The position numbers were made by a program, and so were the translations under genes. 64,000 nucleotides of DNA. It comes from Spirochaetia bacterium (lineage in GTDB: Bacteria; Spirochaetota; Spirochaetia; UBA9216). The stretch spans positions 3,072,001-3,136,000 of the forward strand of contig OY776510.1 in assembly GCA_963675665.1 (NCBI GenBank), in the 5' to 3' direction. Below, piece after piece: positions 7,175-20,609 of the stretch. Positions within the stretch are counted from its first letter, which is position 1. Every line of letters starts with the position of its first letter. The notes under the pieces were generated by a model. It searched no databases. It was not told the origin of the DNA and saw nothing but the letters and a program-made list of their open reading frames with translations.

Positions 7175-7756
7175 ATGAAGCAAGCAAGGAAACAGTTAAC
7201 AATTATAATTGTATTAATAATGATTTGTATTTTTCCAAACCTGTTAACAGCCCAGGAAATAAACGGCGTAAAGAATTATCCTGCACCGTTTTTAATGACG
7301 GCGGCCGGTCAAACACCGGACGCTTTAATGGTTAAAATAGTAGCCCAGAAGAATAAACTGGATTTTACTTTTGAAGCACTTGCCGAGGCAGATGATCTTG
7401 CGGGAAACAAAACTCTGGTTCTTGTAATGGGAGTGAGCATGAAAGGCCTCGGTTCCGCAGGGATTGATATGGATGAGGAATTCGATCGAATAAACGGAAT
7501 GATTGAAAAGGCAAGAAAAGATGATATCGGCATTATCGGAATATTTGCAGGAGGTGCCGGCGGAAGAGGCGGGCGTGATGAATTGACAGATTCAGTAATA
7601 GCAGAGGTCGCGCCAAGAGTAGATTACCTGGTTGTAATTAAAACAGGGGACAAGGACGGATATCTTAAATCTATTGCAGAAAAAAACAGTATTCCGCTGA
7701 CATATATGAATACAATCATGGATATGAACAAAATTGTTCCGCAAATCTTTCAGTAG
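7175..7756 (+). CDS. DUF6305-like exported protein
   Basis: Signal peptide; TAAGQTPD, LVMGVSMKGLGSAGID, GGRGGRDELTD motifs as recalled for this family; context next to deacylase and permease. Confidence 0.65.
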   Translation: MKQARKQLTIIIVLIMICIFPNLLTAQEINGVKNYPAPFLMTAAGQTPDALMVKIVAQKNKLDFTFEALAEADDLAGNKTLVLVMGVSMKGLGSAGIDMDEEFDRINGMIEKARKDDIGIIGIFAGGAGGRGGRDELTDSVIAEVAPRVDYLVVIKTGDKDGYLKSIAEKNSIPLTYMNTIMDMNKIVPQIFQ

Positions 7757-7775
7757 ACAATCAGCAGGAGTGTAT

Positions 7776-9413
7776 ATGTATTTTAATATAAACAATAATG
7801 GAAGATTTCTGATATTTCTTGTTATTTTAACATTCTTGATTCCTTCGGTATTTATTTTCAGTGAAGGCATGCAGGAATATGAACAGTCGCTGCTTGAAAA
7901 GGAAGAACTGAGTCTGATGGTACAGCAATTGTCCGATGAAATTGAAGACATGAAAGAGCAGAATGTTGATCCCTATAAAGAGATAGGTTCTGTTCCCGGT
8001 TATAACCCGAGAGCAAAATACTATGAAGTTCCGGAAGGCTTTAAAAAGATTGATTCACGAGTCAGGTATATAGGTAACCTGCGCGGCAGCTGGGAAGAGA
8101 TGGGATATCAATACGGTGAAAGAACAGGCGATTTGATTCTTAATGTTTTTAACTATTCTGTAGATTTTTTTGCTCAAAGAAATAAAGATATTAATCAGCT
8201 TAAAACAGAACTGAAATTATATCAGGCTCAAATAGAAGCGTATGCGCCGGAGATGATGGAATTTATGAAGGGCATTGCCGACGGAGCTTCCTGGCAGTTG
8301 AGCGAATCTCCCTATGCTGAAGATATGAGCGATTTTGAAAAAATTCTTCTTGTAAATATCCATCTGGATCTTGATTTTTTTCCACCGAAAACAGACGGCG
8401 GAAAAGATTTTTCAATTGAGTATTCAACTCATGATTCTCTGGCTTTAAAAGAACATTGTACCGGTTTTGCATGCAGCGGAAAGGATAGCGGCGAATTACT
8501 GTCTCCCACGAAGAATGGAGAAACAATTGTTGTAAATAACTGTGATCTTGCACAATTTGTTCCATACGGCTGGAATTGCGTTTTTATAGCCACACCAAAT
8601 GATCCGGATGCAAATACTTTCTGGTCCATACAGCCTGCTGGTGTTGTCGGCGGGTTGAATTTATGTGCCAATGATGAAGGTGTTTCACTTGGTAATTTCT
8701 TCGGAGGTCAGAGTGAGGATACCTCGTATGATTACGGCGTTCCAATGGGCGTATTGCAGATCCATGCCCTGGCGTATGCAGATACTGCAGATGAAGCCGT
8801 TGAAATTATGGTTTTTGGAGACGAGAGATACAGGTTCGAAACCAATCGCAAAAAGGTCCTTCAGACCGGGTTATGGTCCTATCTTGCAGCCGATTCCAAT
8901 GAAGTTATGGTTCTTGAAACAACGCCGAATCGTCATGCCGTTCGTTCTCCCGGCGACATGAATGAAACAGGGAATTATGTCATTTATGCCAACTGGTACG
9001 GTTCGAAACACTATTATGATGAAAACAATGTTTTCGTAAATGAACCAATCGGCATTTGCCCTCCTGAATTCCCGGAGAGGTATTATACTTATGAATGGTT
9101 TATAAAATATAATTTTGGTCAGATTGACGAAGCTATGGCTAAAGAGGGACAGAAGATAACCTACTATTATGAAAAGGATACCGGGCGCAGAATTGATTTT
9201 CTTGAGGGCAGTTCGTATCCGCTGTATTTGGGTGTGCATACCATTTCAGCATACTGGGGTGCGGCTCTTGGAATGGATATCGGCGGAACGGCCCATGCTT
9301 CACAGGTTATTGTTGAACCGGCCGGACGAATAAAGTTGAACTGGGTCCAGGGGAGGCCGTGTGAATGGGTCGGCCCATGGCAGTCGGCAGATTTTTTCGG
9401 ATATCAGAAGTAG
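7776..9413 (+). CDS. Exported C45-family Ntn hydrolase (autoproteolytic acyltransferase/amidase)
   Basis: GSWEEMGYQYG, MKGIADGA, HCTGF (nucleophile Cys), NDEGVS; start ATG 7776 behind aggag. Confidence 0.75.
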   Translation: MYFNINNNGRFLIFLVILTFLIPSVFIFSEGMQEYEQSLLEKEELSLMVQQLSDEIEDMKEQNVDPYKEIGSVPGYNPRAKYYEVPEGFKKIDSRVRYIGNLRGSWEEMGYQYGERTGDLILNVFNYSVDFFAQRNKDINQLKTELKLYQAQIEAYAPEMMEFMKGIADGASWQLSESPYAEDMSDFEKILLVNIHLDLDFFPPKTDGGKDFSIEYSTHDSLALKEHCTGFACSGKDSGELLSPTKNGETIVVNNCDLAQFVPYGWNCVFIATPNDPDANTFWSIQPAGVVGGLNLCANDEGVSLGNFFGGQSEDTSYDYGVPMGVLQIHALAYADTADEAVEIMVFGDERYRFETNRKKVLQTGLWSYLAADSNEVMVLETTPNRHAVRSPGDMNETGNYVIYANWYGSKHYYDENNVFVNEPIGICPPEFPERYYTYEWFIKYNFGQIDEAMAKEGQKITYYYEKDTGRRIDFLEGSSYPLYLGVHTISAYWGAALGMDIGGTAHASQVIVEPAGRIKLNWVQGRPCEWVGPWQSADFFGYQK

Positions 9414-9683: not shown

Positions 9684-11257
9684 TTACTCCTCGGTCCAGT
9701 CCAGGTAGTGAATATATGCTGCTCCGCCGCTGACGCCTCCTTCATCTTCGTAGGGCGCGCCGACAATAGCGTAATTGCCGTCTGCATTGACGGAAAAACC
9801 GAAATTGTCGCCTTCCTCAGCATCGAATGCAAAAATTTTCTCGCCTGAGTCCCAGGTGTTTGTTCCGGTTCGGTGAAACAGAACAACAGCTCCGGCGCTG
9901 GCTCCGGCGCTGTCGTTGCCCGGCGCGCTTATAAGAGCCCTGTCGCCCGCTATGGATACTTTTCTGCCGAAAAACTCTCCGGACTGGGCATTCGGCGCCG
10001 TAAGTTTATAACCGGCGTCCCAGGTTGTGGTATCTGTACGGCGAAAGATGTAGGCTGCGCCGGCATTTTCACCCATATCTTCATTACAATCTGCTCCGAC
10101 AACGGCATAGTCACCGTCTATGGCTACGTATGAGCCGAACTGGTTTTCGGCCCCGTCGATAACAGCCGAGGGCTCGGTAATCTTTATTCCCGAGTCCCAG
10201 GTATTGTTGTCGGTGTCGGTGCAATGAAAAAAATAGGCGGCACCTGCGCCTAAAAAGGGATACGGTCCTACAACGGCATAACTTCCGCTTATTGCAACTG
10301 AATTACCGAAAAGCTCATTTTCATAGGGTGCGGTCGACTTGATTTCTGTTCCGGCGTCCCAGATGTTTGAGGCCGTATCAGTACAATGAAAAATATAGGC
10401 GGAGCCTTCTCCAACATGGCTGTCATAATCACCTGTAGCCCCGATAATTGCATACTCCCCGTCGATATCAACCCTGTCGCCGAAATACTTGTTATTATTC
10501 GGATCAGAAGGAACAATTTTTGTGCCTGTGTCCCAGGTATTGCCGCCGGTACGTCTGAAGATATAGGCTGCGCCGCTGTCTGAACCTCCGCCGTTATCGT
10601 TGCGCCATGCGCCGACAATAATATAGTTTCCGTCGATTGCAACTGCAATTCCAAACTCGTCTTCTGCAGTCGGGTCAGTCGCAACAAGTCTTGTTGCTTC
10701 ACCCCAGCTGTTTGTTCCGGTTCGGTGAAAAACATAGGCGGCTCCCGCTTCGGTTGTAGCGCCGTAGTCTTCCTTGCTGGCTCCTACTACGGCGTAATCG
10801 CCGCTTACGTCGACGTAACGGCCGAAATTTGCGCCGTCAGCGGGGTTTTGCGACAGAAGTTTGATCATGTCGGGGTACCACTGGGCGTAGAGGGCAACAT
10901 CTTCAGTGCCCATGGAAAAGGTCTCACCAGGTTCATAGGAAATGCCGCTTCCGTTCGACGCTGTGTTCCATGATGAAAAAGTAAATCCGTCCCGGTCAAG
11001 GTTTCCCTCGTCAAGAACGGTGACTGAAGCATTTTCTTCGTAGGCGTTTGCGTCCAGGGGAACTGTGCCGCCGTCCGAATTATGACCCATATAGGTAACT
11101 GTAAAGGTCGGCGCTTCAGCGGTAAGCCCGAGATCGGAATTTATTTTCTGCTGGATTATATCTACAAATGAAGAGTTAAAGGTGCAGGCGGTAATAATAA
11201 CGGGTATTGCTGTCAGTATAAATACCTGAAAAACCAATTGTTTTTTTCTTTCTGCAT
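9684..11257 (-). CDS. Lipoprotein: conserved N-terminal tag + InlB B-repeat (Flg_new) domain + FG-GAP beta-propeller; 5' end frameshifted or TTG start at 11237
   Basis: Lipobox IITAC; GFTFSSWNTASNGSG...LYAQW; seven FG..VAIDGDYAVVGA...GAAYIF repeats; RBS-linked ATG at 11257 is 1 nt out of frame across an A7 run. Confidence 0.8.
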
Positions 11258-11273
11258 CTTTTCCCCTTTTAAA

Positions 11274-12764
11274 TCAGTCCCTGTAAAACCAGGATACGGA
11301 ATCTGCTCTGTTGCCGGTGACATAGGCATAGGCGCCGTCGGCGGTTACAGCTATCGAGTCCGCTTCGTCAATGTAATCACTGCTGACTTCACACATATAG
11401 GTCATTTCGCCGGTGCCTGCGTCAGTTGAAAGACAGGCCACATCGGTGTCTCCCGGCACGTATACTGTAGCGTCATCAGGCGATAAGGCAACGCAGGAGG
11501 CAAAATACATGCTGTCGTTTGAAACCCTGTGCATATACGAGAGCGCGCCGGTGCCGGTATTTCTTGAAAATGCTGCTGCGCCGCTACCGCCGGATGTTGT
11601 ATAGACATTATTCCCGTCCGCTGTAACAGCTGCAAACGTTATAGTATCAATATTTGAATTGGTTAATTCACCAACATATGAAAGGGCCCCGGTTCCGGAA
11701 TCTCTGTTAAACCAGGCAACTGTATCGGTATTAAATGCATAGACGTGCAGCCCGTCAGGCGAGACGGTAACGAATGAAAAGAATGTACTATATGTGTATT
11801 CTCCCGTGTAAGTAAGGGTCCCGGTATCAGTGTTCCTGGTAAACCAGGTTACCTTGTTGGCGCTTGAGCAAACCGCATAAACATGTTTGTTGTCCGGTGA
11901 AACCGCTACGGATCTTGTATTTACTATAGATTGATGCCAGAGTTTGTCTATATAGGTCAGGGCGCCGGTGTCGGTGTTCCTGGAAAACCAGGCTACCGAG
12001 CTTTTGTTAAACGAGGCAAGATAGATGTGCTTTCCGTCGGGGGCAATTGTAATCTGGTAGGGATAGCTCAGGTTATCGGAATCAACGTACCGGTCTGTAT
12101 AGGAAAGGGCCCCGGTATCAGCGTCTCTGGAAAACCAGGCAATCCCGGCGTCGCCTAACAGGCAGACATAAACATGCTTATTATCAGGCGAAAGGATAAT
12201 ATCGGTTGGAGAGTTTATTGTAGTTTCATCCGAATAGCTGCCGATATAAGAGAGCTCGCCGGGGTTATTTATTCCGGTAACCGAGAATATATAGTTCTTC
12301 TCATCAGTGTCGTTTGTTGTCACCATTACCGTTGCTGACTTGTTCCCGCTGGATAGGGGATCAAACCTTACTGTAAAGGTTGTTGAACCTGAAGGTGTAA
12401 CGGAGGCTGATGTTCCGTCGGTCAGATCAAAGTCAGCTGTATTCCCTGACGATAAAGATACGCTTTCGATAACAAGGTCGGCTGTTCCCGTGTTTTCGAT
12501 CGTAAAGGTTATTTCTCCGCTCGCGTAGCCCCCGTCGCCGTCGTTATGCATATGGCCGAAGCTGTATGTCCCCATGCCTGAAGCCAGTTCGGTTGAACCC
12601 TGCTTTACGGCAATTTCCGGTTCCGCAACCTCGTCGGTAATACCCAGATCGGTATTAATCTTGTCCTGGATCAAATCGACAAAGGACGACTCAAAGCTGC
12701 ATGACGCTGAGAAGGCTGTCAGGATTATAATTAATAATATTATTTTTCTATTTACATTTTTCAT
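11274..12764 (-). CDS. Lipoprotein: conserved N-terminal tag + choice-of-anchor D/ASH Ig-like domain + lactonase-like 7-bladed propeller
   Basis: Lipobox SASC; FTIENTGTADL...FTVRFDP...TNDTDE; repeats SPDNKHVY...WFSRDADTGALSY. Confidence 0.85.
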   Translation of the reverse strand: MKNVNRKIILLIIILTAFSASCSFESSFVDLIQDKINTDLGITDEVAEPEIAVKQGSTELASGMGTYSFGHMHNDGDGGYASGEITFTIENTGTADLVIESVSLSSGNTADFDLTDGTSASVTPSGSTTFTVRFDPLSSGNKSATVMVTTNDTDEKNYIFSVTGINNPGELSYIGSYSDETTINSPTDIILSPDNKHVYVCLLGDAGIAWFSRDADTGALSYTDRYVDSDNLSYPYQITIAPDGKHIYLASFNKSSVAWFSRNTDTGALTYIDKLWHQSIVNTRSVAVSPDNKHVYAVCSSANKVTWFTRNTDTGTLTYTGEYTYSTFFSFVTVSPDGLHVYAFNTDTVAWFNRDSGTGALSYVGELTNSNIDTITFAAVTADGNNVYTTSGGSGAAAFSRNTGTGALSYMHRVSNDSMYFASCVALSPDDATVYVPGDTDVACLSTDAGTGEMTYMCEVSSDYIDEADSIAVTADGAYAYVTGNRADSVSWFYRD

Positions 12765-12789
12765 TATGCCATATCCTGTTTTCTCCGGA

Positions 12790-14394
12790 TTACCTGAACC
12801 GATATACTATATTAAGATCATCGGAAGAACTCCCTGCGACGACTATCTTGCCGTCTGAATCCGTTGCTATTCCCGCGCCGGTAGCGGAGGTGCCGTCGTC
12901 GCAGACAAAAGCGCCGTCTGTACCGAAGGTCGGGTCGGAGGTCCCGTCGGGCAGGTACCTCCAGATTGCTATCCGCCCCGTATGTGATGCATCTACATCA
13001 ACCCTTCCTGTAACCAGGATGTTACCTGCGTTATCCAGACAGAGGCCGTAACCATAGTTAAACATGTAACCATAGCTGTACTCCAGGTATCCGTTTATGC
13101 CGAATGAGGTATCCAGTGAACCGTCATCATTCAGACGTAACAGAATCATATAGTAGTTACTGCCGTCATAGGCGTATCCTGTCACGAGGATTTTCCCGTT
13201 GGCATCAATGATGACGTCCTGACCGTAATTGCTGGTGTTTCCCAGTTCGGCACTGCCTAATATTACTGCGCCGGATGTTCCGAAGGTGCTGTCGGCTGTA
13301 CCGTCGTTTTTGTATCTCCAGACACCAAGGTTTCGCACTGCACCGGAATAAATATATCCGGTTACAACAATATTATTCTCTTCGTCAAGGGTAACCGCAG
13401 AACCCCAATCGTTTTCGCCGTGGTCTATTGTGACGGTGCCGTCGTCATCAAAGGATGTATTTTCTGAACCGTCGTCGTTGTATCGTTGGATTAAAATGTC
13501 GTCGTCGGAAACAGGCCTTGTATAACCGGCAACTACAATCTTGCCGCTGTCGTCGATAACAATGCCGTTTGCAACGTCTGAATCGTTGGTTACGTCACCT
13601 TCGTAGTTAACCATAGAAAATGATGAGTCTGTATTCCCGTTTTCCAGATAGCGCCAGATAGCCAGATCAACAAAACCTGCTCCATCTCCGGTTTTCCCTG
13701 CAATTAAAATATTATTGCTGCCGTCGGTAGTTATATCGCAACCTTCAACAGGATCAGTGCCTGAAGAGCTGATTATTCCGTCGGTATTGAAGGTCTGGTC
13801 AAGACTACCGTTGCTGTTATAACGGCAGGAGTACATGTCCATTTCTCCACCCATAAGTGTATCGGCCCAACCGGTTACAAGGATTCTGCCCTCAGTATCG
13901 AAATGGACAGCATTCCATCCTCCCTGGCTCAGGCTCTGGCCTTTTAATTCCTGGCGAACGTAGCCCAGCGTATTGAAGTCGGTATCGATTTCACCCTTCG
14001 GGAGCACCAGGAACTCGCATGTTGCTGAAAATTCCCCGTCGGAGGTTGTCGCGGTAATGGTTGCGCTTCCAGGTCCGGTGCCGGTCACAAGGCCCGTATC
14101 GCTGACTGCGGCTTTGTTCCCGTCGTTGCTGGACCAGTTGACGACCTGGTTTGTTGCATTGGCGGGTTCAAAAACTGCCGTCAGCTGCTGTGTATACCCC
14201 GAGGTGACTGTAATATCAGATTTGTCGAGAGTGATGCCGGTTGCAGCCACATTACCTGCAATCCCAAGGTCGGTATTAATCTTGTCCTGGATAAGATCGA
14301 CAAAGGACGACTCAAAGCTGCAGGAGAATATCAGAAATACAAACGGTATGACGGTAAATGAGATTGACGCTGATAAAAAAAGTTTTTTTCTCAT
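12790..14394 (-). CDS. Lipoprotein: conserved N-terminal tag + Big_2 Ig-like domain + delta-60 repeat propeller
   Basis: Lipobox IFSC; QLTAVFEPANATNQVVNWSS...ATITATTSDG; repeats DGKILVTG...RYNDDGSLDTSFG; ATG 14394 overlaps upstream TGA (ATGA). Confidence 0.85.
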   Translation of the reverse strand: MRKKLFLSASISFTVIPFVFLIFSCSFESSFVDLIQDKINTDLGIAGNVAATGITLDKSDITVTSGYTQQLTAVFEPANATNQVVNWSSNDGNKAAVSDTGLVTGTGPGSATITATTSDGEFSATCEFLVLPKGEIDTDFNTLGYVRQELKGQSLSQGGWNAVHFDTEGRILVTGWADTLMGGEMDMYSCRYNSNGSLDQTFNTDGIISSSGTDPVEGCDITTDGSNNILIAGKTGDGAGFVDLAIWRYLENGNTDSSFSMVNYEGDVTNDSDVANGIVIDDSGKIVVAGYTRPVSDDDILIQRYNDDGSENTSFDDDGTVTIDHGENDWGSAVTLDEENNIVVTGYIYSGAVRNLGVWRYKNDGTADSTFGTSGAVILGSAELGNTSNYGQDVIIDANGKILVTGYAYDGSNYYMILLRLNDDGSLDTSFGINGYLEYSYGYMFNYGYGLCLDNAGNILVTGRVDVDASHTGRIAIWRYLPDGTSDPTFGTDGAFVCDDGTSATGAGIATDSDGKIVVAGSSSDDLNIVYRFR

Positions 14395-16505
14395 TCTTCT
14401 TCTTCCCATAAAACCGTATCGCGGAGTCCTGCTGTATCGGCCGCCCTTACGGCTTCTTCGCCCCTCAGGTCAAGATACGCAAACTGTGATGCCGTTTCGG
14501 GGGAAAGAATTTTTAACCGTTCGTATGTTTCCCCTACCATGCCGTAGTTTTCAAGTTCATGATTGCAGCGTGAAATACCCAGCAGGGCGGTTTTATCTTC
14601 GCTGTTAACAGCAAGCGCCTGCTGATAATACCCGAGCGCCTGTTTAAAATCATCCTGGATGAAATAAATATTTCCAAGGTTATTTAATGACGGTCTGTAT
14701 TTTACAGTGCTGATGATTTTCTTAAAAAGATCGGCCGCGCGATCGTATAGACCGTAGCGGGCGTATAAAACAGCCAGTCTGTTCTGCAGCTTGTATTTTG
14801 TATTGCTTTGCTCGATCTTTGCCTGCAACTGGGCCGTCTGGGGGTAAATTTCCTGCTCAATGTGCCTGGAGAGGGTATTTTTAAAGGAATCTTGTACCTT
14901 ATCCTTGTCCGGAAGGTTGATAGCAACAGAGCTTTCACTGAAACCGACGGCCTGATAGGTCTTCCATGATTCCCTGGTAGGGTAGAGTACGGCCTGTTCC
15001 TTCGATGCGTTCTCGCGCCACTCCTTTGCCCCGGACTGCCAGGCATTTCTGAAATTGTCCTGGAACATCGTGATCTCAACCGGGACCCATGCCTTGTTTT
15101 CGCGGAAGATAAGTTCGTCCGACCGGCTGAAGACGTTCCGCGCCTCGTCAGGACCTGTTTTCAGCGCAAATGCGGTGTAAATATGACCCGGAATGGTTAT
15201 GACTGCAGTCTCAACGCCTACTGCCTCAAGCAGAGCTGTGTACAAGGCGGAAAGATCATCGCAGTCGCCGTTGGTGTATTCCAGGGTCTGCCTTGGAAAC
15301 TGGAGAAAATCAACAACTGTTGTCTCCTGTGATAATTCGGAAAAAGGAGTAGAAGGATCAATTTCATATTGTATCCCGTAGATTTGTATCGCGTTAAACA
15401 GCGCCATTGCCTTTTGTAAATTCTCATCCACAGCAGGATTCTCTACTTCATGCATCCAGCTCATAACGTTCTTTGAGAAACTCAGCACAATAGGGTCTTT
15501 TGCGGTAATAAATGATGATATCTTTCGATCGTCGTCCCAAACCAGGGCGTTACGGTTATGAAACTCAAGCACGGGGTTATACTCGGCCGAATAGAGTTGA
15601 CCGTCCAGAGTATACGAAACAGTGATCTTTGTGGAAGCCTTGGTGCCTTCGGTAATATCCATAAGATCTTCGGTAAAGAGTCCCAGAAGATTTATTACAG
15701 TTTCTTCTCTCGGTTCCAGGTTAAAGCTCGCGCCGCTTTCCATCGGGTTGTCCATATAGCGTTCAACATAGAATTTTATCTTTATGTCCTTTACCGGCTT
15801 TTTCTCATGATTAACAACCCTTGCAGTTCCTACAGGATTATTATCGTAGTATTTGTAGAGGACCGGAAAAAGCTGGTTGAGAGTAATATCCTGAAGGCCT
15901 ATGCCCCTTCCGTCTTCAAGGGTCTGCGGCTGCATTCCGCCGGGCATGAATGATGTGCCGGAAGATGATTTTACGGGAACATCCATCTTCAGCAACAGGC
16001 TGAAATTGATTCCATTATAAAGATTTTTCATGAAATCATATGAAGTGCCGATTCCGAGAGAAAACGGTCCGGCAAGTTTAAACGTTCCTGCCGCGCTGGT
16101 TTTTATATAAAAGTCTCCGCCGTTCCCGTCGCCTGCGTCCCAGCCGACAGGGTTCCAGGAATAATAACCGAAATTACCGAAAATATTCAAACCGAAGCGA
16201 TTGCCAAGAGGAAAGTTGATAACAGGTCCGGCCCCGAAGCCGAGCGTTCTGATTGAATCCGCCGTCTCAAGCGGAAGAACGGTGAAGTCTCCGCCTATAC
16301 CCAGGCCGAAATATTTTAAGAATGAGGGAATAAAAAAGGCTTCAACTTCAGCGCCGGCCCCCATTTTAAATAATGCGGTACTGCTGGCACCGAGAGGGAC
16401 AGCTCCGTGGGGAACAACATTAATCGACAAAATATTTTCCTGCTGACTGAAAACCACGGGGGCTACAAGTATCAAAACAAACAATATTGCTATAAACTTT
16501 TTCAT
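14391..16505 (-). CDS. Outer-membrane beta-barrel + Ig-like + transglutaminase-like (Cys/His/acid) + TPR protein
   Basis: Signal peptide; ~160 aa of amphipathic Gly/aromatic strands; GDCDDLS, PGHIY, WVPVEIT; TPR (SLNNLGNIYFIQDDFKQALGYYQQAL); start ATG 16505 behind aggag. Confidence 0.75.
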   Translation of the reverse strand: MKKFIAILFVLILVAPVVFSQQENILSINVVPHGAVPLGASSTALFKMGAGAEVEAFFIPSFLKYFGLGIGGDFTVLPLETADSIRTLGFGAGPVINFPLGNRFGLNIFGNFGYYSWNPVGWDAGDGNGGDFYIKTSAAGTFKLAGPFSLGIGTSYDFMKNLYNGINFSLLLKMDVPVKSSSGTSFMPGGMQPQTLEDGRGIGLQDITLNQLFPVLYKYYDNNPVGTARVVNHEKKPVKDIKIKFYVERYMDNPMESGASFNLEPREETVINLLGLFTEDLMDITEGTKASTKITVSYTLDGQLYSAEYNPVLEFHNRNALVWDDDRKISSFITAKDPIVLSFSKNVMSWMHEVENPAVDENLQKAMALFNAIQIYGIQYEIDPSTPFSELSQETTVVDFLQFPRQTLEYTNGDCDDLSALYTALLEAVGVETAVITIPGHIYTAFALKTGPDEARNVFSRSDELIFRENKAWVPVEITMFQDNFRNAWQSGAKEWRENASKEQAVLYPTRESWKTYQAVGFSESSVAINLPDKDKVQDSFKNTLSRHIEQEIYPQTAQLQAKIEQSNTKYKLQNRLAVLYARYGLYDRAADLFKKIISTVKYRPSLNNLGNIYFIQDDFKQALGYYQQALAVNSEDKTALLGISRCNHELENYGMVGETYERLKILSPETASQFAYLDLRGEEAVRAADTAGLRDTVLWEEEE

Positions 16506-16546
16506 TATTTCTCTCCTAATGCAGCGTGAAAATAAGCTTTGCTGAT

Positions 16547-16555
16547 ATTGTAACA
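16547..16555 (-). promoter_or_regulatory. Putative extended -10 promoter of the transglutaminase/lipoprotein operon
   Basis: TGtTACAAT on minus strand about 40 nt upstream of the start; small palindrome ggcat-acttc-atgcc at 16564-16578. Confidence 0.35.
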
Positions 16556-16663
16556 TCTATTTCGGCATACTTCATGCCATATTTATATAAAGAGTAATAT
16601 TTTATCTAAAGAGATTTACATTTGTATAGGTAAATTAAATTAAAGCCCTGCAGATAACGGGGC

Positions 16664-19337: not shown

Positions 19338-20609
19338 TTAAAAAGCGCTTAACGCAGCGTCTATTTCAGCCTGTGTAATTCCTAAAGTTTCCAGGTAGGA
19401 AGTTACAAATCCCGGCTGCTCCTTATCCATCTGGACCAGAAGCGAAACCGATTTTTCTCCGTAAAAATCAGGATCATCACGGAATGAGTATACAAGGTCT
19501 TCTACAGCATCTTCGAATCTGTTGTCCGCGTATGAATTAACGCCCAGAGCGTAATAGGTAATACCTTCTTCGCCGCCCATCTGGATTGCTGTTTCGTAGT
19601 AGTATTCCGCCATCATATAGTCTCTTTCTGCATAGTAGATAAGTCCGAGGTAATAATAGGGAACCGGATGATCATCTCTCATGCTGAGAGCTTTTATAAA
19701 TGTTCTTTCTGCAAGTGCCAGATCGCCTTCGGCGTATAAATCCATTCCGTCCTGAACAAGATCAGGGAATGTTTTAATTCTGTCTATATAGGTTGCAAAA
19801 TCCTTTGAGAATTCATTTTTCCCGACCCATTCAAAAGCGTTTTTAATGATCGCGACCTCATTGTTTTTTCTGTCGGAAGCCGGAGAAAGGGTTTTTATTG
19901 AATCCCAGATAATCCTGTTATATGCGTTATCGCTGCTGTTTAAAAGGAAATGTACAAGGCCCCAGGATTGTGCATAAAAAACATCTATGCTTGCGTTTGC
20001 ATTCTCGACATTCATCGTCAGCAGGGTGGGGAACGGGATGATCGAATTCTCATAACCTGCTGCGGTATTGCTGAGATATTTTTTAAGAGTAAAAAGCCAA
20101 CTGAGGTTTTCCTTGTATTCCACCTCTTTTGATTCTGCCGAGTAATAGCATTCTTCAAAATAAATTGCGAAGCCTTTCTGCATCCAGAGCGGCGGATTCG
20201 GAATAAAAGTTTTTAAAAACTGCATGAAACCGTGATGTGCAAGATATTTGTTGTACGAGGCATCTTCCGAGTAGTAACATACCAGTTCATTTTTATCGGG
20301 TTGATTATACTGCAAAAATACAAAAGAATTCTTTTTGTCGGGGATAATATCTGCAAGATAAGAGTCAAAAGATGCTTTATCCCTGAAGACCTTGACTTTC
20401 ATTTTGTAGGAAAGAGCTTCTTTATTAAAATGGAAGTAGTCGTTATAGAAATCAAAATATGCGTCAAGAATTTCCGCAGTTTCGGCAGCATGACCTACAC
20501 TCACTTCGGAATAAACCTTGTAATAATCACTTTCAATAAGGTTCATATCCTGCGAGAAGAGAAAAACCGAAAGGAAAATAAAAACTGCACAAAATATCAA
20601 TTTTTTCAT
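19338..20609 (-). CDS. Exported TPR protein with degenerate peptidase MA/DUF1570-like domain
   Basis: LAHHGF...PPLWMQKGFAIYFE, FYAQSWGLVHFL; TPRs (YYYLGLIYY). Confidence 0.7.
   Translation of the reverse strand: MKKLIFCAVFIFLSVFLFSQDMNLIESDYYKVYSEVSVGHAAETAEILDAYFDFYNDYFHFNKEALSYKMKVKVFRDKASFDSYLADIIPDKKNSFVFLQYNQPDKNELVCYYSEDASYNKYLAHHGFMQFLKTFIPNPPLWMQKGFAIYFEECYYSAESKEVEYKENLSWLFTLKKYLSNTAAGYENSIIPFPTLLTMNVENANASIDVFYAQSWGLVHFLLNSSDNAYNRIIWDSIKTLSPASDRKNNEVAIIKNAFEWVGKNEFSKDFATYIDRIKTFPDLVQDGMDLYAEGDLALAERTFIKALSMRDDHPVPYYYLGLIYYAERDYMMAEYYYETAIQMGGEEGITYYALGVNSYADNRFEDAVEDLVYSFRDDPDFYGEKSVSLLVQMDKEQPGFVTSYLETLGITQAEIDAALSAF

Follow-up and report, generated by a model that had tools for sequence, protein, structure and literature searches.

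Introduction

How spirochaetes sort, hold and release their numerous lipoproteins is poorly understood. The closest described counterparts of the locus considered here, a lipoprotein gene cluster of a Spirochaetia bacterium in which three genes share a 20-residue tag directly after the lipobox cysteine, are LapG/LapA, Slam, the lipoprotein export signal (LES) and the NlpI-Prc and LbcA-CtpA pairs. In Borrelia, what becomes of a lipoprotein is influenced by the stretch that follows its lipidated Cys; to our knowledge, the tethers of Borrelia surface lipoproteins are disordered and follow no consensus. NlpI-Prc and LbcA-CtpA each combine a tetratricopeptide repeat (TPR) adaptor with a periplasmic protease acting on lipoprotein substrates, and Slam proteins carry N-terminal TPRs followed by a large C-terminal DUF560 barrel. 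LapG, a periplasmic enzyme of the transglutaminase/cysteine-protease fold from Pseudomonas fluorescens, controls the cell retention of the nearby-encoded adhesin LapA and is described as cleaving 108 residues from the LapA N-terminus, having a C-H-D triad and belonging to the DUF920/BTLCP family (PMC3032545). Of 353 Slam homologues in one report, 185 adjoin a lipobox gene, an adjacency that was used to predict clients, and Slam clients are described there as sharing a TbpB-like eight-stranded barrel domain (PMC5449769). The LES is presented as a short acidic signal right after the lipidated Cys of lipoproteins with unrelated bodies, with the consensus K-(D/E)2 or Q-A-(D/E)2 (PMC5080379). According to a review, no Slam homologue was found in Borrelia, and the start of OspE is called there a classic unstructured region (PMC7857515).

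Here, we analyse a stretch of 64,000 nt (hereafter, the window; positions 3072001-3136000 of contig C1, OY776510.1) of the genome GCA_963675665.1 (G000), a single contig of 5.15 Mb with 43% G+C. An earlier note, made from the sequence alone, had pointed out three copies of a 60-nt cassette in this window and proposed that it is conserved as protein and swapped onto new passenger domains. Both proposals hold up, and the probable reason for the conservation, absent from that note, is the tie of the tag to the gene encoded immediately upstream.

A 63-nt cassette conserved as a peptide

Four tightly packed genes in the open reading frame (ORF) list lie on the minus strand of the window: the gene for a 721-residue protein, hereafter the partner (14391..16556), is followed by P3 (12790..14409), P2 (11274..12764) and P1 (9684..11237). 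The start of P3 overlaps the partner stop by 19 nt if the first ATG is used, or as ATGA if the second ATG (14392-14394) is used. Each of the three downstream genes starts with a lipobox-type signal peptide, as judged by pattern, which ends in a Cys directly before the tag (FSAS-C, LIFS-C and, in P1, IITA-C); P2 (MKNVNRKIILLIIILTAFSAS-C) and P3 (MRKKLFLSASISFTVIPFVFLIFS-C) fit the signal peptidase II lipoprotein pattern. By Pfam and NCBIfam, P3 consists of Big_2 and a delta-60/DUF5122 beta-propeller, and P2 of a choice-of-anchor D/HYDIN-type Ig domain and a lactonase-like beta-propeller. The lipoprotein-like P1, for which Pfam and the orthologue P0004 were used, combines Flg_new with an FG-GAP beta-propeller.

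Sequence comparison defines the cassette as 63 nt, namely the lipobox Cys codon and 20 further codons, located on the minus strand at 14260..14322 in P3 (Cys + SFESSFVDLIQDKINTDLGI), at 12639..12701 in P2, with the same peptide, and at 11124..11186 in P1 (Cys + TFNSSFVDIIQQKINSDLGL). As the earlier note had observed, the copies at 12642-12701 and 14263-14322 are identical at 55 of 60 nt; the copy at 11127-11186 matches each of them at 45 of 60. Over the 63 nt, the P2 and P3 tags, both of which encode CSFESSFVDLIQDKINTDLGI, differ at five positions in four codons (Leu TTG/CTT, Asp GAT/GAC, Leu CTG/CTT, Gly GGT/GGG), all synonymous. The P1 tag, CTFNSSFVDIIQQKINSDLGL, has six of 21 residues changed, mostly conservatively (S>T, E>N, L>I, D>Q, T>S, I>L), and is the most diverged in G000, with 14 of 20 residues common to its neighbours' tags. 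A degenerate 60-mer of the two close copies occurs only at those two sites in the window and in none of 100 shuffles, and the peptide stays unchanged after five random substitutions in a fraction of 1.9e-4 (kappa 1) to 1.1e-3 (kappa 3) of 200,000 simulations. Similarity among the copies begins at the Cys codon and ends after the 21st codon, with 15-nt sliding identity at background in both flanks. The signal peptides and passengers are unrelated, as had been claimed.

Selection on the peptide, which the earlier note had deduced from the three copies, is also apparent in other organisms. In a metagenomic relative (see below), the tags of the paralogues R_P1 and R_P2 are separated by 13 synonymous and one non-synonymous difference, compared with five and none for P2/P3; for the orthologous tags of G_P1 and R_P1, from G000 and the relative, the counts are 11 and seven. 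Synonymous divergence (pS) amounts to 0.39 for P2/P3 and 0.94 for R_P1/R_P2, and the motif recurs in other spirochaetes. Tag identity is 17-20 of 20 residues within the relative and 14-16 of 20 between orthologues of the two genomes, and P0122, the P2 orthologue of a third organism, has a tag identical at 20 of 20 residues on a passenger that is 83% identical and behind a signal peptide that is 43% identical. Because the tags within a genome are alike yet diverged at silent sites, all of them seem to track one lineage-specific peptide; on these small numbers, this is the pattern that a shared reader would impose.

The tag is covered by no Pfam or NCBIfam model. AlphaFold2 (AF2), given a 19-row tag alignment, predicts a helix at mature residues 6-19 (predicted local distance difference test, pLDDT, 73), preceded by a cap-like D/E-S-P/S/A stretch; hydrophobic residues occupy positions 3, 7, 8, 11, 15 and 19. 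After the Cys, the tag starts with S-F-E-S-S or T-F-N-S-S in the window and with x-[ILV]-[DE]-S in relatives. Two loci, L138 (G176:C144) and L142 (G162:C172), encode partner homologues 55-58% identical to the window's, followed by lipoproteins in which the tag is truncated after nine residues (C-NIDS[ST]YTD[SA]MWHYEL...), and the first half of the tag may therefore be its essential part.

The tag is linked to the upstream partner gene

At up to nine substitutions, only the three sites of the window match the tag peptide in G000. Among a crude list of 271 candidate lipoprotein N-termini of this genome, no pair other than P2 and P3 has the same 20-residue tether on bodies that are unrelated, besides low-complexity AKEEAAA tethers and repeat artefacts. 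A fourth, diverged tag was found behind a paralogue of the partner, paralogue B (51% identical), which is followed by a lipoprotein starting C-TIESEYVTALKEKIENDLNPP. A profile built from eight tags (A2) was then run against 301 genomes of the class, G000 and 300 others. Its four matches in G000, P1-P3 and the lipoprotein behind paralogue B, all adjoin partner paralogues A and B. In the 300 other genomes there are 15 places with E<1e-3: all 15 lie directly after a lipobox Cys, and in 14 of them a partner homologue (45-72% identity) is encoded directly upstream. A further match at E 0.01, in G265, also has a partner, whereas inspection of 15 other weak places (E 0.004-0.05) revealed no complete tag and no partner at any of them. 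Thus, the tag is not peculiar to G000 and marks lipoproteins directly downstream of an uncharacterised spirochaete protein family.

The same linkage is seen from the partner side, in a survey of which nine loci repeat places from the tag-side survey. In the fetched loci, a same-strand lipoprotein gene comes next behind 24 of 27 family members, and two of the three exceptions have at most 114 nt of sequence left downstream. Where identity to the partner reaches at least 45% and enough downstream sequence exists, all 16 homologues precede a lipoprotein bearing a tag of the kind found in the window (A-type), including variants that the profile missed (C-EINSPVTEFIEEKIESD, C-SNGMLEDIKDKIVQDE). A wider, overlapping sample covered 48 family members of 28-60% identity; 37 of the 48 have a lipoprotein neighbour, and three of the 11 exceptions lack room for one. 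The gaps between the two genes range from -59 to +141 nt and are mostly stop/start overlaps (1-59 nt). Distant subfamilies display related but distinct motifs after the Cys (C-KNPLVSVIESEVAVAVTPPEV, C-ENSLLDTVKKMVDDY, C-PEPITAPMVALVEDTIPP), such that tag flavour follows partner subfamily. A profile made from 32 N-termini of other genomes ranks the partner-adjacent lipoproteins of G000 as the top four, and as six of the top eight, among the 271 candidates. Judged from these sequences, the A-type tag is one flavour within a wider family of partner/lipoprotein gene pairs.

The distribution of the cassette is patchy, from loss or transfer: the five congeners searched (G001-G005) lack an A-type tag, and their partner homologues do not exceed 39% identity, although two such cassettes are present in G000; the nearest relatives of the cassette are found in metagenome contigs and in other families of the class. 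Among database homologues of P1 there are tagged proteins (P0004, 73% identical, with C-TFESPFVELIQQKINADLGI; P0041; P0093) and proteins with the same passenger that lack the tag (for example, P0058, P0059 and P0075).

Broader searches were also performed. A profile search of 1.84 billion representative proteins returned six matches at E<=1e-3, three of which are single full-length matches at residues 23-45; the other three, multi-stretch matches, were judged from the table alone to be repeat proteins and discarded. A word-index search of 5.8 billion proteins with P3 residues 25-64 gave six candidates, of which only P3 itself was relevant; a 20-residue match scores too low in such a database for this outcome to carry much weight. 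A narrow three-sequence tag profile produced nothing real in 40 relatives, its match in G019 (E 0.001) being rejected because it lies inside an enzyme-like ORF that is unrelated. A degenerate DNA pattern for FVD.IQ.KIN had five matches in 185,579 species genomes, a scan that may not have included G000; none follows a lipobox and all were put down to chance. A variant of the pattern had no match in viral contigs and 30 in metagenome contigs, only three of which (L106, L117 and L123) are real.

Passengers and recombination at the tag

A-type tags are joined to at least nine passenger architectures by Pfam and NCBIfam. Besides the three of P1-P3 (Flg_new with FG-GAP, choice-of-anchor D with a lactonase-like propeller, and Big_2 with a delta-60 propeller), they comprise FGE-sulfatase alone or together with Big_2 or Flg_new, Big_2 arrays, fn3 with GLUG, Flg_new arrays with or without Lcl_C, and Big_13 with Y_Y_Y, and one A-type-tagged protein has no Pfam match at all. 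This diversity indicates that the tag follows the partner rather than the passenger.

Overlaps of 1,504 nt at 100% identity and of 774 nt at 98.6% connect the three metagenome contigs (L123, L117 and L106), which were joined into the locus of one relative, approximately 72% identical to the window at the DNA level. Its order is the C-terminal part of the partner, X1, X2, a P2-like gene (R_P2) and a P1-like gene (R_P1, identical to P0004). Window positions 12636-12959, covering the end of P3, the spacer and the signal peptide and tag of P2, align to the end of X1, the spacer and the signal peptide and tag of X2 (72% over 328 nt), whereas positions 10588-12705, with the tag and passenger of P2 and the start of P1, align to the P2-like tag and passenger and onward (72% over 2,169 nt). 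The two collinear alignments, whose region-wise identities agree, overlap only in the tag of P2. Consistently, the signal peptide of P2 (MKNVNRKI...) resembles that of X2 (MKNVNQKI..., 13 of 21 residues) and not that of the relative's P2-like gene. G000 and the relative thus differ by a 1,599-nt indel, comprising the X2 passenger, the spacer and the next signal peptide, with both ends in tags. Since the passenger of X2 is a long-separated paralogue, with 45% identity to P3 and 54% to X1, we favour a loss on the G000 side over recent acquisition; the same junction as in G000 seems to be present in P0122.

A second event is a conversion tract within the relative: from 3 nt ahead of the Cys codon, X1 and X2 share 384 nt at 96% identity, with signal peptides and remaining bodies at background. 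P2 and P3 share an identical 27-nt run at the start of the tag, roughly the length generally required for homologous exchange. The suggestion of the earlier note that the cassette may serve as a recombination point for shuffling passengers is in line with both the range of architectures and the passenger comparison at this locus, in which the relative carries an extra, tag-bounded X2 segment. With two rearrangements ending in or at the tag, and only two, the alignments support a recombination joint and do not prove a hotspot. The locus nevertheless offers a clean natural example of a short constrained peptide-coding segment as a joint that recombines signal peptides and passenger domains.

Predicted architecture of the partner protein

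The partner was characterised using the ORF list, Pfam, an AF2 model built from 22 homologues (pLDDT 84), fold searches and a homologue alignment. The predicted layout includes a signal peptide, an eight-strand OmpA-like beta-barrel (residues 42-194), a disordered linker, a beta-sandwich (219-340), an alpha/beta domain of the transglutaminase fold (343-533), and a long helix with a TPR domain (551-700). Foldseek relates the modelled barrel to the transmembrane domain of OmpA and to Ail, OmpX and NspA (E 6e-6 to 1e-4, target TM 0.6-0.7), and VIA matches it to NspA (Z 17.0; root-mean-square deviation 3.2; 149 aligned) and to the OprF N-domain (Z 15.6), as expected for an eight-stranded outer-membrane barrel of the OmpA type. 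Both ends of OmpA-type barrels are in the periplasm, so that the enzyme/TPR module is probably periplasmic and hung under the outer membrane. The TPR part resembles the peptide-binding three-TPR domains of Hop, CHIP and PP5 with Z of 14-15, a range common for helical repeats and little above the values that such repeats attain by chance.

For the whole partner, Pfam reports only TPR families and a weak Transglut_core match, and the alpha/beta domain has a partial match to the N-terminus of the NCBIfam model ProA (E 1e-12, 46 bits against a cut-off of 1500). The segments G430-D-C-D-D-L435 and P456-G-H-I459 and the residues W490, P492 and E494-I-T496 are invariant in all 22 homologues. Among them, C432 opens a helix in the AF2 model, and H458 and E494 lie on or beside the following strands. 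Read from the secondary structure of the predicted model, the order of C432, H458 and E494 is that expected for a transglutaminase/papain-type triad. Searches of Pfam, NCBIfam and the Atlas gave no functional name for the family; the Atlas clusters nearest to the partner are unnamed TPR proteins, mostly from Spirochaetota.

The partner family has seven paralogues in G000, each located beside a lipoprotein gene, and several per genome in relatives. Outside the window, the six further paralogues lie at G000:C1 308124-310355, 2496871-2498958, 3766162-3768381, 4007662-4009800, 4019643-4021709 and 4158304-4160496. Three of the six (~30% identical, aligned from residue ~167-217) are paired with lipoproteins of 937-1,753 residues starting C-P-x-P-[IL]..., for example, CPEPITAPMVALVEDTIPP.

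Comparison with known systems

The logic of the tag resembles that of LapG/LapA, Slam and LES, and the locus departs from all three in their defining features. As in LapG/LapA, a putative enzyme of the transglutaminase/cysteine-protease fold is encoded near an adhesin-like protein on whose N-terminal part it might act. The domain alone has no Peptidase_C93/DUF920 match at E<=10, nor the whole partner at E<=0.01, although HMMER filters drop most matches above E ~0.1. The candidate enzyme domain, moreover, shares its polypeptide with an OmpA-like barrel, a beta-sandwich and TPRs; the putative substrates are lipoproteins rather than type-I-secreted RTX adhesins; and, in place of the C-H-D triad of LapG, the invariant C432 and H458 of the partner are accompanied by E494 as the third acidic residue, its placement being read from the predicted order of secondary-structure elements.

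Like Slam of Neisseria and other Proteobacteria, the partner is a predicted outer-membrane TPR protein encoded beside lipoproteins (seven of seven paralogues in G000, 37 of 48 and 24 of 27 members elsewhere). Its barrel, however, is N-terminal, eight-stranded and too small for a conduit, its TPRs are C-terminal, and Pfam lists TPR and Transglut_core only. Unlike Slam clients, the tagged proteins have no TbpB-like barrel as a common feature; Big_2, Flg_new, fn3, FG-GAP, delta-60, FGE-sulfatase and other passengers share only the predicted N-terminal helix. With the Bacteroidota LES, the tag has in common that an acidic signal after the Cys is found on lipoproteins with unrelated bodies. Whereas the LES comprises 3-4 residues and is used genome-wide without a dedicated neighbour gene, the tag is a predicted 20-residue helix present only beside one gene family, with four profile matches in G000, all next to partner paralogues, and its sequence departs from the LES consensus. 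A TPR module that presents envelope proteins to a protease would also recall NlpI-Prc and LbcA-CtpA, but there the adaptor and the protease are separate proteins of other folds (the protease being a C-terminal processing serine protease), and the substrates have no shared N-terminal tag. Literature searches, whose coverage is incomplete and leaves most subscription journals outside, found no paper on this cassette or on the pairing of a transglutaminase-like protein with spirochaete lipoproteins.

Proposed role of the tag and alternative explanations

The balance of the evidence tips towards the 20-residue tag being a partner-recognition helix. In the mechanism that we propose, the tagged protein would be made as a lipoprotein and lipidated at the Cys, and the next ~20 residues would form a short N-capped amphipathic helix. 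This helix would be read by the periplasmic module, transglutaminase-fold domain plus TPRs, of the protein encoded upstream, which would hang under the outer membrane by its OmpA-like eight-strand barrel. Recognition might either dock the lipoprotein to this anchor or allow the enzyme to cut the passenger off its lipid anchor in a manner similar to LapG and LapA; because of the invariant Cys/His/Glu triad, we lean slightly towards processing over docking. One partner per genome would have to fit all tags, so that the tags would be kept alike with signal peptides and passengers free to vary, and the shared 63 nt could serve as a landing pad for passenger-swapping recombination. A broader proposal, that spirochaetes possess a multi-copy lipoprotein-handling system in which each outer-membrane-anchored transglutaminase-fold/TPR enzyme docks or clips the lipoprotein or lipoproteins encoded behind it through a helix after the lipobox, with the tag as a recombination joint for adhesin-like passengers, is appreciably more speculative, and we regard it as possible but doubtful. 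If recognition by the partner is true, spirochaete lipoprotein handling could be probed directly through a short tag that can be transplanted and is read by its own, genetically linked enzyme; the tag would be a useful tool as well.

Binding was modelled using mature partner residues 38-721 (22 rows) and the first 36 mature residues of P3 (19 rows), along with three controls. The runs scored 0.51, 0.40 and 0.01 (median 0.40; best control, 0.02), which amounts to weak support: the mark applied is reached by 116 of 157 solved complexes and by two of 215 mismatches, but at scores of 0.60 or below by only 18 of the 157 and by both mismatches. Contact agreement among the runs is at least 0%, and partner pLDDT is at least 32. 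The prediction thus nudges the odds of binding upward without making anything firm.

Several observations weigh against recognition and processing by the partner. One of the three runs scored 0.01, and there are no contacts common to the runs and no reported interface. The transglutaminase assignment is based on a predicted model and on a Transglut_core score that misses the cut-off of 23, narrowly when the domain is scanned by itself (22.6 bits) and more clearly for the full-length protein (19.7); the third residue of the putative triad is Glu, as opposed to Asp in known transglutaminase-like proteases; and fold searches with the whole 721-residue model matched the barrel and the TPRs only, which filled the lists, so that the middle domain was left unmatched and barely probed. 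A phmmer search of this domain against PDB sequences likewise had no match at E<=10. The probable periplasmic location of the module derives from OmpA-type topology only, and no conserved cleavage motif follows the tag. One of the 15 tag places, in G010, is a partial tag match with no partner within 1.5 kb. Finally, adjacent, co-inherited genes can share conservation patterns without contact, older gene conversion followed by silent drift may be the source of the likeness of tags within a genome, and the passenger domains are of kinds usually found on cell surfaces.

The last point, together with the acidic character of the tag, its position directly after the +1 Cys as in the LES (described in PMC5080379) and the weakness of the complex prediction, would suit a general sorting signal read by common lipoprotein machinery, of the Lol type or for surface export, with the neighbouring enzyme acting together with the passengers and not reading the tag. 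We consider this unlikely: a general signal should not be restricted to four profile sites in a 5.15-Mb genome, all beside partner paralogues, nor be the only shared tether on unrelated bodies among 271 candidate N-termini (bar low-complexity AKEEAAA), and its flavour tracks the partner subfamily and fits neither K-(D/E)2 nor Q-A-(D/E)2. About equally improbable is a self-association or membrane-surface role, in which the helix would form homo- or hetero-oligomers or lie on the membrane independently of the partner. The amphipathic pattern, with hydrophobic residues every 3-4 positions, and the co-encoding of three tagged proteins in the window speak for it, but most related loci encode a single tagged lipoprotein, so that hetero-bundling cannot be the general role, and the strict linkage to the partner and the subfamily-specific flavours would be left unexplained.

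The two other explanations concern the DNA itself. Gene conversion among neighbouring paralogous 5' ends does occur at this type of locus, as the X1/X2 tract of 96% identity over 384 nt from the tag attests, and two tags of one genome resemble each other more than orthologous tags do, both as expected if the cassette were a recombination by-product with little function of its own. Yet the silent sites have diverged (pS 0.39 for P2/P3 and 0.94 for R_P1/R_P2) with the peptide kept, and several families of the class retain the motif although the passengers behind it are unrelated, making this origin very improbable. The possibility that the element acts as nucleic acid, through mRNA structure or a regulatory site, was considered since the repeat was first seen as DNA; no point in its support was found, and we give it hardly any credence, arguing from the substitution pattern only: all P2/P3 differences are at third positions or synonymous, and the relatives keep the peptide with quite different codons. 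Recognition by the partner accordingly remains our preferred, if provisional, account of the tag.

Other features and observations

The 5' end of P1 is irregular. Its h-region and IITA-C are present, but the charged n-region is out of frame: according to the sequence and orthologue N-termini, an ATG at 11255-11257 followed by a run of seven A (seven T on the plus strand, 11241-11247; site 11241..11257, minus strand) lies one base out of frame upstream of the ORF, which as listed begins at TTG and has no charged n-region. In frame, this ATG would yield an n-region like the MQNNTKRF of the orthologue. The disruption reflects either a homopolymer sequencing error or a genuine frameshift (a pseudogene or a phase-variable start).

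Two uncharacterised operon neighbours were noted in the window, namely a 559-residue exported protein with a faint DUF1214 match (7734-9413, plus strand) and a 423-residue exported TPR protein with a faint DUF1570 match (19338-20609, minus strand). Elsewhere in G000, two ORFs of 370 residues with the same first 70 residues (G000:C1 3765016-3766128 and 3773915-3775027) were taken, without a family search, for an insertion-sequence transposase; one ORF of 370 residues lies between paralogue E and the lipoprotein gene upstream of E, perhaps uncoupling that pair. A tandem array with a 525-nt period (G000:C1 ~1215283-1218223) gave identical spurious lipoprotein-like N-termini in the ORF screen and is probably a large repeat-protein gene on the other strand. 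G000 encodes three FlaA homologues, which marks it as a spirochaete, and the database organism names on the relatives' proteins are Spirochaetales and Oceanispirochaeta.

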